A stretch of DNA of 64,000 bases from Escherichia coli. GTDB lineage: Bacteria > Pseudomonadota > Gammaproteobacteria > Enterobacterales > Enterobacteriaceae. The stretch lies in the NCBI RefSeq assembly GCF_024223415.1, contig NZ_CP100500.1, one strand, 5' to 3'. Made by a program: the position numbers and the translations under genes. Positions 57,982 through 60,900 of the stretch are shown piece after piece (position 1 is the stretch's first letter; each line of letters opens with the position of its first letter). The notes beneath the pieces were generated by a model. It ran no database searches. It was not told the origin of the DNA and was given only the letters and a program-made list of their open reading frames with translations.

Positions 57982-60900
57982 TCAACGAATACTGATGCCG
58001 GAAGCCGCTTTTTTGGTCACAATCACCGTACAGTCGGTGATATTGCCTGCCCCCTGATTGCCTTTCTGGAAAATCTTAAACTCCAGAGTGACGCTACCAC
58101 CACCACTAGGCATATCAATAACTGCACTGTAACTACCGGGAATGGCCCCTTTAGTTTCTCTGGATGCGATTAATACGCCGTTTTTGCGAACTTCAAAACC
58201 ATAACCCGTGTATCGCGTGCCTCCTGGGTTATTTCCGCTCCCCGGATCGTCATACGCTATACCGTTAAAAATAATGGGCGGAATAATAATCTGGCGGTCA
58301 AAGTTATGATCATCGCTGATGGTGACTGTAACCGTACCGTTTGGTGTTTCCGTGTTACCCCACGTACCGACTTTTTTCGGGAAGGCTTTTGATACAGCTT
58401 TAACGAAATCTCCTCTGACCTGGGTCGCCTCCAGCATGCCCTTAATCGTACAGTTCTGGTTAATCGTGACATTGTTGAGCGTTCCTGAGTTCGCATTCAC
58501 ACTACCACTGATATCCGCATTTTTAGCGGTCAGCTTTCCGTCTGATGTCAGGGAAAATACCGGAGGACTGCCACCGCTGGTAATGGTGGGGGCTGTCAGG
58601 CGCTTCAGGAACACGTCGTTCATGAATATCTGGTTGCCCTGCGCCACAAACATCGGCGTTTCATTCCCGTTTGCCGGGTCAATAAACGCGATACGATTGG
58701 CGGCAACCAGAAACTGGCTCAGCTTGCCTTCCTCCGTGTCCTCCATGCTGAGGCCAATACCCGCGACATAATGTTTGCCGTCTTTGGTCTGCTCAATTTT
58801 GACGCCCCACATGGCATTCCATTTATCACTGGCGTCTTTCCACTCTTTCGAAAACTCCTCCAGTCTGCTGGCGTTATCCTCCGTCAGGTCGACTTTTTCC
58901 AGCAGCTCCTGGCCGAGATGGGATTCGGTTATCTTGCCTTTGAAAAAATCCAGGTAACCTTCCGCATCATCGCTCGCCCGACCGACGGCCTCCACGAATG
59001 CCGATTTGCCAACGGTGTTCACACTGCGGATATAAAAGTAATAATCATGGCCCGGTTTGATATTGATACTGGCGGCTATCCAGTACAGCCCCGTGCCAAG
59101 GTAGCGGGCTGTGGTTTCAACCTGCCTGATATCGGTAATCCGCGTTTCCGAGAACCAGAACTCAAACTGTACCGTCGGATCATAAACCGCAAGATGCGGC
59201 GTGGCAGTTATCTGAAAATAGCCCGGCGTCAGCTCAATCCGCGACGGCGCTGCCGGGGCGGCAATCCGGAACGATACCGACGCCGGATCGCCCTGCTGTC
59301 CCCGGGCATTTACCGCCCGGACCGTCAGCGTGTAACGCCCCAGCGCCAGTTGCCTGAAGCGGTAAGTGGTTTCCGTCGTCCGGGCCGTGCTGACCAGCCG
59401 CTCACTGCCGTCATCCGCGGCCACGGTCAGGCGAAGCAGGAAGCTCACGCCCTTCACCACCTTCGGCGTGTCCCAGCGCGCCAGCACCTGATATTCCCCG
59501 CTGTCTGCGGTGACTTCTGCGGTCAGGTGCTGTACTGCTGGCGGCGTGACACCATTCACCGTTCCGCTCTGGTCGCCGTCAAAGTGCGCCCCGTTATCCA
59601 CGATGGCCTCTTTTTCCGGTACATGCTGCACGGCAGTGATGGCATACGTGCCGTCGTCGTTCTCACGGATACTCACGCAGCGGAACAGGCGCTGGCGCAG
59701 CGTCGGCAGCTTCAGCCCCCACACGCTGTACTCGGCAACGCCGTCAGGAACCCGGCTCACTTTCACCTTCACGCCGTCGGTGACGGACTGAACCTCCACG
59801 CTGACCGGATTGCCACTTCCGTCAACCAGACTTATCAGCGTGGTACCGGAGGATGGCAGCGTGATTTCACGGTCGAGCGTCAGCGTCCGGGTCTGGCTGT
59901 TCACCGCCAGCACACGACCACCGGTGCTGATACCGGCATAGTCATCATCACAGATTTCAATGACATCGCCCGGTACATGGCGAAGCCCTTCAGCACCCAC
60001 GCTGAAGTCCACGGTCTGCGTCTCCAGCAGCTCCGTTTTAATCAGCCACAGCCCGGCGCGGTGTGCCTGCCCCCGGCTGGTACAGCCAAAGGCATCCATC
60101 TTCGTGACGTTACGACCGTAACGGGCAATGGCCTGCGTGTCCTCCACAAGCTCTGTCGCCGTCTCCTGGCCGTTATTCGGGTCACTCCAGTTCACCTCAA
60201 CGGCATTATGGCGGTCCTTCAGGGCGCTGAAGCTGTAGCGGAACGGCGCGCCATCATCCGGCATCACCACATTACTGCGGTTATAGGTCCACACCTTATC
60301 CGACGGTCGGTCCTGCACGAACGTCAGCGTCTGCCCGTTCCATACCGGCATACAGCGCATCGCCGAGCAGAAATCACTGAGCACATCCCACGCCTTACGC
60401 TGCCTGGTCAGCCAGGCATTACAGGTGATGCGCGGCTCCGTGCCACCAAAGCCGTCCGGCACTGACTGGTCGCAGTACTGGCCGATGACATACAGCGCCC
60501 ATTTATCCACATCCGCCGCACCAAGACGTTTCCCCATGCCGTAGCGCGGATGGGTCAGCATATCCCACAGACACCAGGCCGGGTTGTTGCTGTATGCCGG
60601 TTTAAACGTTCCGTCCCAGATACCGCTGTATTGCCGCGTCTGCGGGTTATAATTCGACGGCACCTGCAGAATACGCCCGCGAAGATGATAATTACGGCTC
60701 ACCTGCTGGCTGCCGAACTGCTCCGAATCCACCTGCACACCGACCAGTGCCGTGTTCGGGTAGCACTGTTTCACATCGATGATTTCGGTGTATGACGACC
60801 AGAGCGTTTTGTTCTGCAGCTGGTCTGTGGTGCTGTCCGGCGTCATCCTGCGCATCCGGATACTGAACGGGCGCGGCGGCAGGTTACCCACCACCACCGG

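Follow-up and report, generated by a model that had tools for sequence, protein, structure and literature searches.

The window analysed here is a stretch of 64,000 nucleotides of Escherichia coli DNA. Only the tail end of a lambdoid prophage lies within it, the prophage running past the window end at position 64000. The gene order is ydfI-like, ydfJ-like, ydfK, a PinQ-like invertase, tfa, stf, lom, J, I, K, L, and M, and J, lom, stf, tfa, and the upstream genes I, K, L, and M are all full-length open reading frames (ORFs). The features considered below are as follows.

49320-50780, ydfI-like gene, adjoining the prophage end.
50869-52152, ydfJ-like gene, adjoining the prophage end.
52903-53169, ydfK-like ORF, adjoining the prophage end.
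53486-54076, plus strand, PinQ-like serine invertase of 196 aa (Resolvase and HTH_7 domains), 98 nt from tfa.
54174-54749, minus strand, tail fibre assembly gene tfa, 191 aa (Pfam Caudo_TAP).
54749-57253, minus strand, uninterrupted side tail fibre gene stf, 834 aa (Pfam phage_tail_N, Phage_fiber_2 in three stretches, and Collar).
57312-57911, minus strand, lom-like outer-membrane protein gene of the 434 type, 199 aa (Pfam Ail_Lom, E 3e-121).
57942-57959, minus strand, terminator-like hairpin and T-run in the J-lom intergenic region; the annotation of phage 434 has a terminator at the corresponding position.
57380-58500, minus strand, mosaic block unlike lambda and matching 434 in 60-nt identity windows (J C-terminus, intergenic terminator, and most of lom).
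57982-61395, minus strand, gene J (tail tip, central tail fibre), 1137 aa and a stop codon, from the ORF list, NCBIfam, and Pfam.
58441-61395, minus strand, J residues 1-985 (hub domains, FNIII domains, helical shaft, and straight fibre), common to lambda.
57985-58440, minus strand, J residues 986-1137, receptor-binding domain (RBD) of the phage 434 (h434) type.

A stretch of E. coli ST866 was 98.4% identical and carried exactly these gene annotations. Together with the flanking ydfI, ydfJ, ydfK, and pinQ genes, the ST866 annotations indicate a lambdoid prophage at the Qin site; in E. coli K-12, the ydfI/ydfJ/ydfK neighbourhood is where the Qin prophage lies. In ST866, ydfJ is annotated without its N-terminus.

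The J protein matched NCBIfam NF049904 (lambda_TipJ) with 2267.8 bits against a cut-off of 1950, residues 1-1137 lying on model positions 1-1163, and its Pfam domains formed the full lambda J series (FNIII-A_GpJ, Phage-tail_3, Ig_J, Ig_J_second, Phage_Tail_Tip, and Ig_GpJ_C). It was aligned globally to lambda J (NP_040600; NC_001416 15505-18903; 1132 aa, ending in ...KKQALGISVV) and to J of phage 434 (UMO75286; OL657226 15505-18918; 1137 aa). The initial annotation had given this lambda C-terminus correctly, as NC_001416 confirms, and the peptide that it quoted from the prophage was present in the tail of the translated ORF at 57982-61395 on the minus strand. Over residues 1-985, J was identical to lambda J at 945 of 985 positions (95.9%), in agreement with the initial description of most of the 1137-aa protein as lambda-like, and 97.3% identical to 434 J. 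Residues 952-973 were the last stretch of 15 or more consecutive residues identical to lambda J. Over its whole length, J was 97.3% identical to 434 J, of equal length (1137 aa) and free of frameshifts.

The alignment of residues 986-1137 with lambda J gave 56 identities in 158 columns (35%), including 17 gap columns, whereas 148 of 152 residues (97.4%) were identical to 434 J without gaps. The high identity over the last ~150 residues by which a lambda-type (LamB-binding) allele would be recognised was thus lacking at 35%, and the near-identity to 434 J over the C-terminal domain that marks the h434 allele was found. It had been claimed initially that the last ~150 residues were unlike lambda J, and identity with lambda J above 90% across the final 150 residues had been set beforehand as the outcome against this claim; the pairwise alignment lies clearly below that figure. 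The RBD differed from that of 434 by four substitutions, D1019N, V1108I, H1110Q, and R1115G, three of which cluster at residues 1108-1115.

The last 172 aa of J were compared by tblastn with 50,697 phage records. The result was bimodal, with 74 records at 90% identity or more, 169 below 60%, and none between. The former group included 434, lambda h434 imm21, mEp460, cdtI, ASU11, several ECOR-derived phages, and many long-tailed Stx phages, and the latter consisted of lambda and other classes. The C-terminal regions of mEp332, PhiR34_1, and mEp460_ev081, for which K-12 is listed as the host, were 98.8-99.4% identical to that of the prophage J. Judged by these identities, the C-terminal tail of J is the classical h434 host-range allele, a common variant that is already known. 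The genetic description of this allele is decades old, and it was sequenced in phage 434 and is routinely annotated as gpJ. The initial annotation did not recognise the divergent tail as a classical, named variant, nor that E. coli prophages carry it more often than the lambda type.

The DNA identity to lambda was 92-100% at 58860-58501, 78% at 58500-58441, and 32-62% below 58440, so that the start of divergence placed initially at 58440 was accurate. From about 58500 to 57380, 60-nt windows were 30-62% identical to lambda, apart from one window at 82%, and 92-100% identical to phage 434, likewise with one window at 82%. Identity to lambda returned to at least 90% below about 57377, that is, at the 3' end of lom. 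The Lom protein was 96% identical to 434 Lom versus 44% to lambda Lom. The abrupt drop near 58500, the recovery near 57380, and the high identity to 434 point to mosaic exchange, and the sequence pattern indicates that a cassette of ~1.1 kb, comprising the J C-terminus and lom, is exchanged as a unit between lambdoid phages rather than having diverged gradually. A second terminator-like hairpin lies between lom and stf (57264-57285, minus strand), with eight pairs, seven of them G-C, followed by a T-run.

We also characterised the C-terminal domain by family and fold. Residues 1001-1136 of J matched Pfam PF12421 (Ig_GpJ_C) with 88.3 bits against a gathering threshold of 26.2 (E 6.2e-25). In a sequence search of the PDB with the last 212 residues, the best match was A8 gpJ (9wca), which aligned end to end (E 4e-62), and lambda gpJ (8iyk/8xck) was matched to the C-terminus with E about 1e-53. 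When the RBD was the query of a homologue search, nearly all matches were fragments of this one allele, and an identical RBD sequence was found in a 624-member protein cluster. In an exhaustive search of residues 990-1137 against 1.8 billion representative proteins, only 109 relatives were found at E<=0.001, and therefore the family is small; from the source names of the fragments, it appears to be largely confined to Escherichia, Shigella, and Klebsiella. Diverse RBD classes for the alignment were drawn from this representative search and not from the same-allele fragments, giving 17 sequences that span the RBD classes. The motifs GD..K, FP, GT.T, DD..FDRQ, NG..I, DMP.G.G..L.F, and K...GI formed an invariant core, KK was also conserved, and the core motifs were separated by variable segments with indels.

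AlphaFold2 prediction of residues 975-1137 from the 17-sequence alignment, a structure prediction that the initial annotation had suggested, yielded an all-beta model with a pLDDT of 81.7 and a pTM of 0.75, with the same fold as the lambda gpJ RBD. The top match of a Foldseek search against the PDB was the lambda gpJ RBD in its closed state (8xck, chain F; E 1.5e-14, TMq 0.76, 37% identity), and the other top matches were 8xcj (LamB-bound lambda gpJ RBD), 9wca (closed A8 gpJ RBD), and 9wcb, which is the A8 gpJ RBD with OmpC of E. coli EDL933 (43% identity). The model showed the Ig-like beta-sandwich of the solved lambda gpJ RBD. As modelled, the J C-terminal domain has the fold of the lambda RBD and differs from it in the variable segments. 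There is no solved structure of a 434-type RBD, and the closest solved OmpC-binding RBD is that of A8; since it is only 43-46% identical, it shows the fold, but its contacts are not transferable. No paper describing the A8 gpJ-OmpC structures 9wca and 9wcb was found in our literature search.

Two further observations concern the body of J. An ORF of 564 aa at 58771-60465 on the plus strand is antisense to J and lies entirely within it. Such antisense ORFs were set aside because J on the opposite strand is strongly supported as coding, and this one was presumed to arise from the composition of the J coding strand. In addition, a 32-residue peptide of lambda J has been reported to trigger HepS, the abortive-infection nuclease of Gifsy-1 (PMC13043305). 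This peptide, including F924, is identical in residues 902-933 of the prophage J (window positions 58597-58692), and the prophage J is therefore predicted to activate HepS.

Downstream of the block, the relationships flip: Stf and Tfa are lambda-like and not 434-like. Stf was about 72% identical to lambda orf-401 in its N-terminal part and to orf-314 in its C-terminal part, Tfa was 94% identical to lambda Tfa, and BLAST gave no match between 434 Tfa and the prophage Tfa. The J-RBD/lom cassette and this downstream flip are ordinary lambdoid mosaicism. The full-length side fibre noted initially was borne out, Stf being a single uninterrupted 834-aa ORF. Its C-terminal part, with 72% identity to orf-314 (residues ~606-834, window positions 54749-55440), contains seven H-x-H motifs between residues 677 and 808. 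Within stf, three tandem 132-nt repeats lie at 55953-56348, the later copies being 76% and 62% identical to the first, and correspond to the three Phage_fiber_2 repeat units of Stf. The stf homologue of E. coli ST866 is longer (2961 versus 2505 nt), indicating that the length of the fibre shaft varies between strains. The position of the invertase next to tfa prompted a search for an invertible side-fibre segment, and none was found; the 98-nt gap between the two genes is too small for an alternative tfa or stf segment. Neither a crossover-like core of the invertase (AAACCNNGGTTT, with at most one mismatch) nor convincing inverted repeats were found in the region of 52.5-57.4 kb, and the PinQ-like invertase may be a relic that has no substrate at this locus.

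Phage 434 uses OmpC, lambda carrying the 434 J gene in place of its own binds OmpC, and the C-terminus of J sets receptor specificity (PMC3509688, PMC11101478). From the 97% identity of the prophage RBD to that of 434, we infer by homology that its receptor is most likely the porin OmpC and not LamB. This supports the initial suggestion of a receptor other than the LamB of lambda, the region being the 434 allele (97.4%), for which the literature on 434 names OmpC. Taken together, we consider, with a probability of roughly 0.88, that the element is a lambdoid prophage at the Qin site carrying the h434 J allele, with an RBD that most likely binds OmpC and a swapped-in cassette of the J C-terminus and lom. 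In lambda, four bottom loops of the Ig-like RBD insert into LamB (PMC11101478). In the preferred reading, residues 1 to ~985 of the prophage J make up, as they do in lambda, the hub of the tail tip and the straight central fibre, and the last ~150 residues form the same trimeric Ig-like RBD with different loop sequences. With this RBD at the end of the central fibre, the J trimer would dock on the OmpC trimer. We further infer that OmpC binding would be transmitted up the straight fibre so that the tail tip opens, as was shown structurally for lambda with LamB.

Three other readings were weighed against this one. The difference from lambda might have arisen by gradual point mutation under host-range selection and not by a module swap. 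The domain is indeed homologous to that of lambda (PF12421, same fold), and common descent is certain at some depth; however, the change in identity to lambda, from ~96% to 35%, takes place abruptly over some 60 nt and is accompanied by indels, and past lom, 1.1 kb further on, the return to high identity is just as abrupt. The block is 92-100% identical to 434 over most of its length, which is the signature of mosaic exchange, and the tblastn identities fall at 90% or more or below 60% without intermediates, so that gradual divergence is highly improbable. It is improbable, to a lesser degree, that the RBD is 434-like but, owing to the four substitutions relative to 434, either binds some receptor different from OmpC or recognises just certain OmpC alleles. 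In lambda and phage 21, a small number of J substitutions can be enough to alter which porin is used (PMC11336670, PMC11101478), and three of the four differences are clustered. Against this, the exact RBD sequence is very common, nothing points to another receptor, and the 98.8-99.4% identical tails of the K-12-listed phages suggest that the four substitutions are probably neutral. No receptor assignments were found in the literature search for the ECOR-derived PhiR phages and the mEp phages with this allele.

A reading of somewhat greater weight, which we still regard as unlikely, is that the prophage is defective and Qin-like and J an inert relic in it, with a receptor specificity that serves no present function. 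The K-12 Qin element at the same site is cryptic, and the window holds only the tail end of the prophage. The intact ORFs of J, lom, stf, tfa, I, K, L, and M argue against decay, as does a J of the same length as that of the functional phage 434, without a frameshift.

An extension of the preferred reading, in which the RBD binds OmpC, concerns the side fibre. Stf of Ur-lambda binds OmpC (PMC12617516), and as the Stf tip and Tfa of the prophage are lambda-like, both fibres might target OmpC. E. coli strains are polymorphic in OmpC, and hence the range of OmpC alleles recognised could differ. It is conceivable, though rather doubtful, that both fibres target OmpC and that the four substitutions tune the RBD to wild OmpC alleles, which would make the element an OmpC specialist prophage; if true, OmpC polymorphism would govern the spread of the prophage.

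The distribution of the two forms was surveyed in 5426 complete E. coli genomes. The 459-nt region of the 434 type was present in 2112 of them, in up to seven copies per genome, versus only 98 for the corresponding lambda region, all at 99% identity or more. These counts indicate that the form unlike lambda is the usual one in nature. Among the matches listed, five of five records with the lambda-type region were laboratory strains or DE3 lysogens, and the 98 lambda-type genomes appear to be mostly laboratory strains. The LamB-binding tail tip of lambda is thus the rare form in sequenced E. coli, and the 434 type is common. For this prophage, the result means that the likely receptor is annotated as OmpC instead of LamB, with little significance beyond correct annotation. 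It provides context for users of lambda J as the default and for host-range prediction of lambdoid and long-tailed Stx prophages.

Among the known systems, J of phage 434 is the closest, with 1137 aa, 97.3% identity overall, and 97.4% over the last 152 residues; 434 also has the same terminator downstream of J and the same lom type (96%). The prophage differs from it by 31 substitutions in J, the four in the RBD among them, and by its lambda-like side fibre and tfa. Lambda J (structures 8iyk, 8xck, and 8xcj) shares the domain order, the RBD fold (TMq 0.76 to 8xck), and 95.9% identity over residues 1-985, whereas its RBD is 35% identical with indels in the variable segments, and lambda binds LamB. 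A8 gpJ, solved closed (9wca) and open with EDL933 OmpC (9wcb), is the best PDB sequence match and has the same fold, and it is a J-type RBD solved in the OmpC-bound state; it nevertheless belongs to a separate RBD class, with 43% identity by Foldseek and 45-46% for A8-like sequences in the 17-sequence alignment. The EHEC siphophage phi330 has a lambda-like J for which OmpC dependence was shown experimentally (PMC12502783), and its RBD is of a class other than the 434 type; the RBDs of phi330, 434, and lambda are 35-40% identical to one another and have a common fold (PMC12502783).
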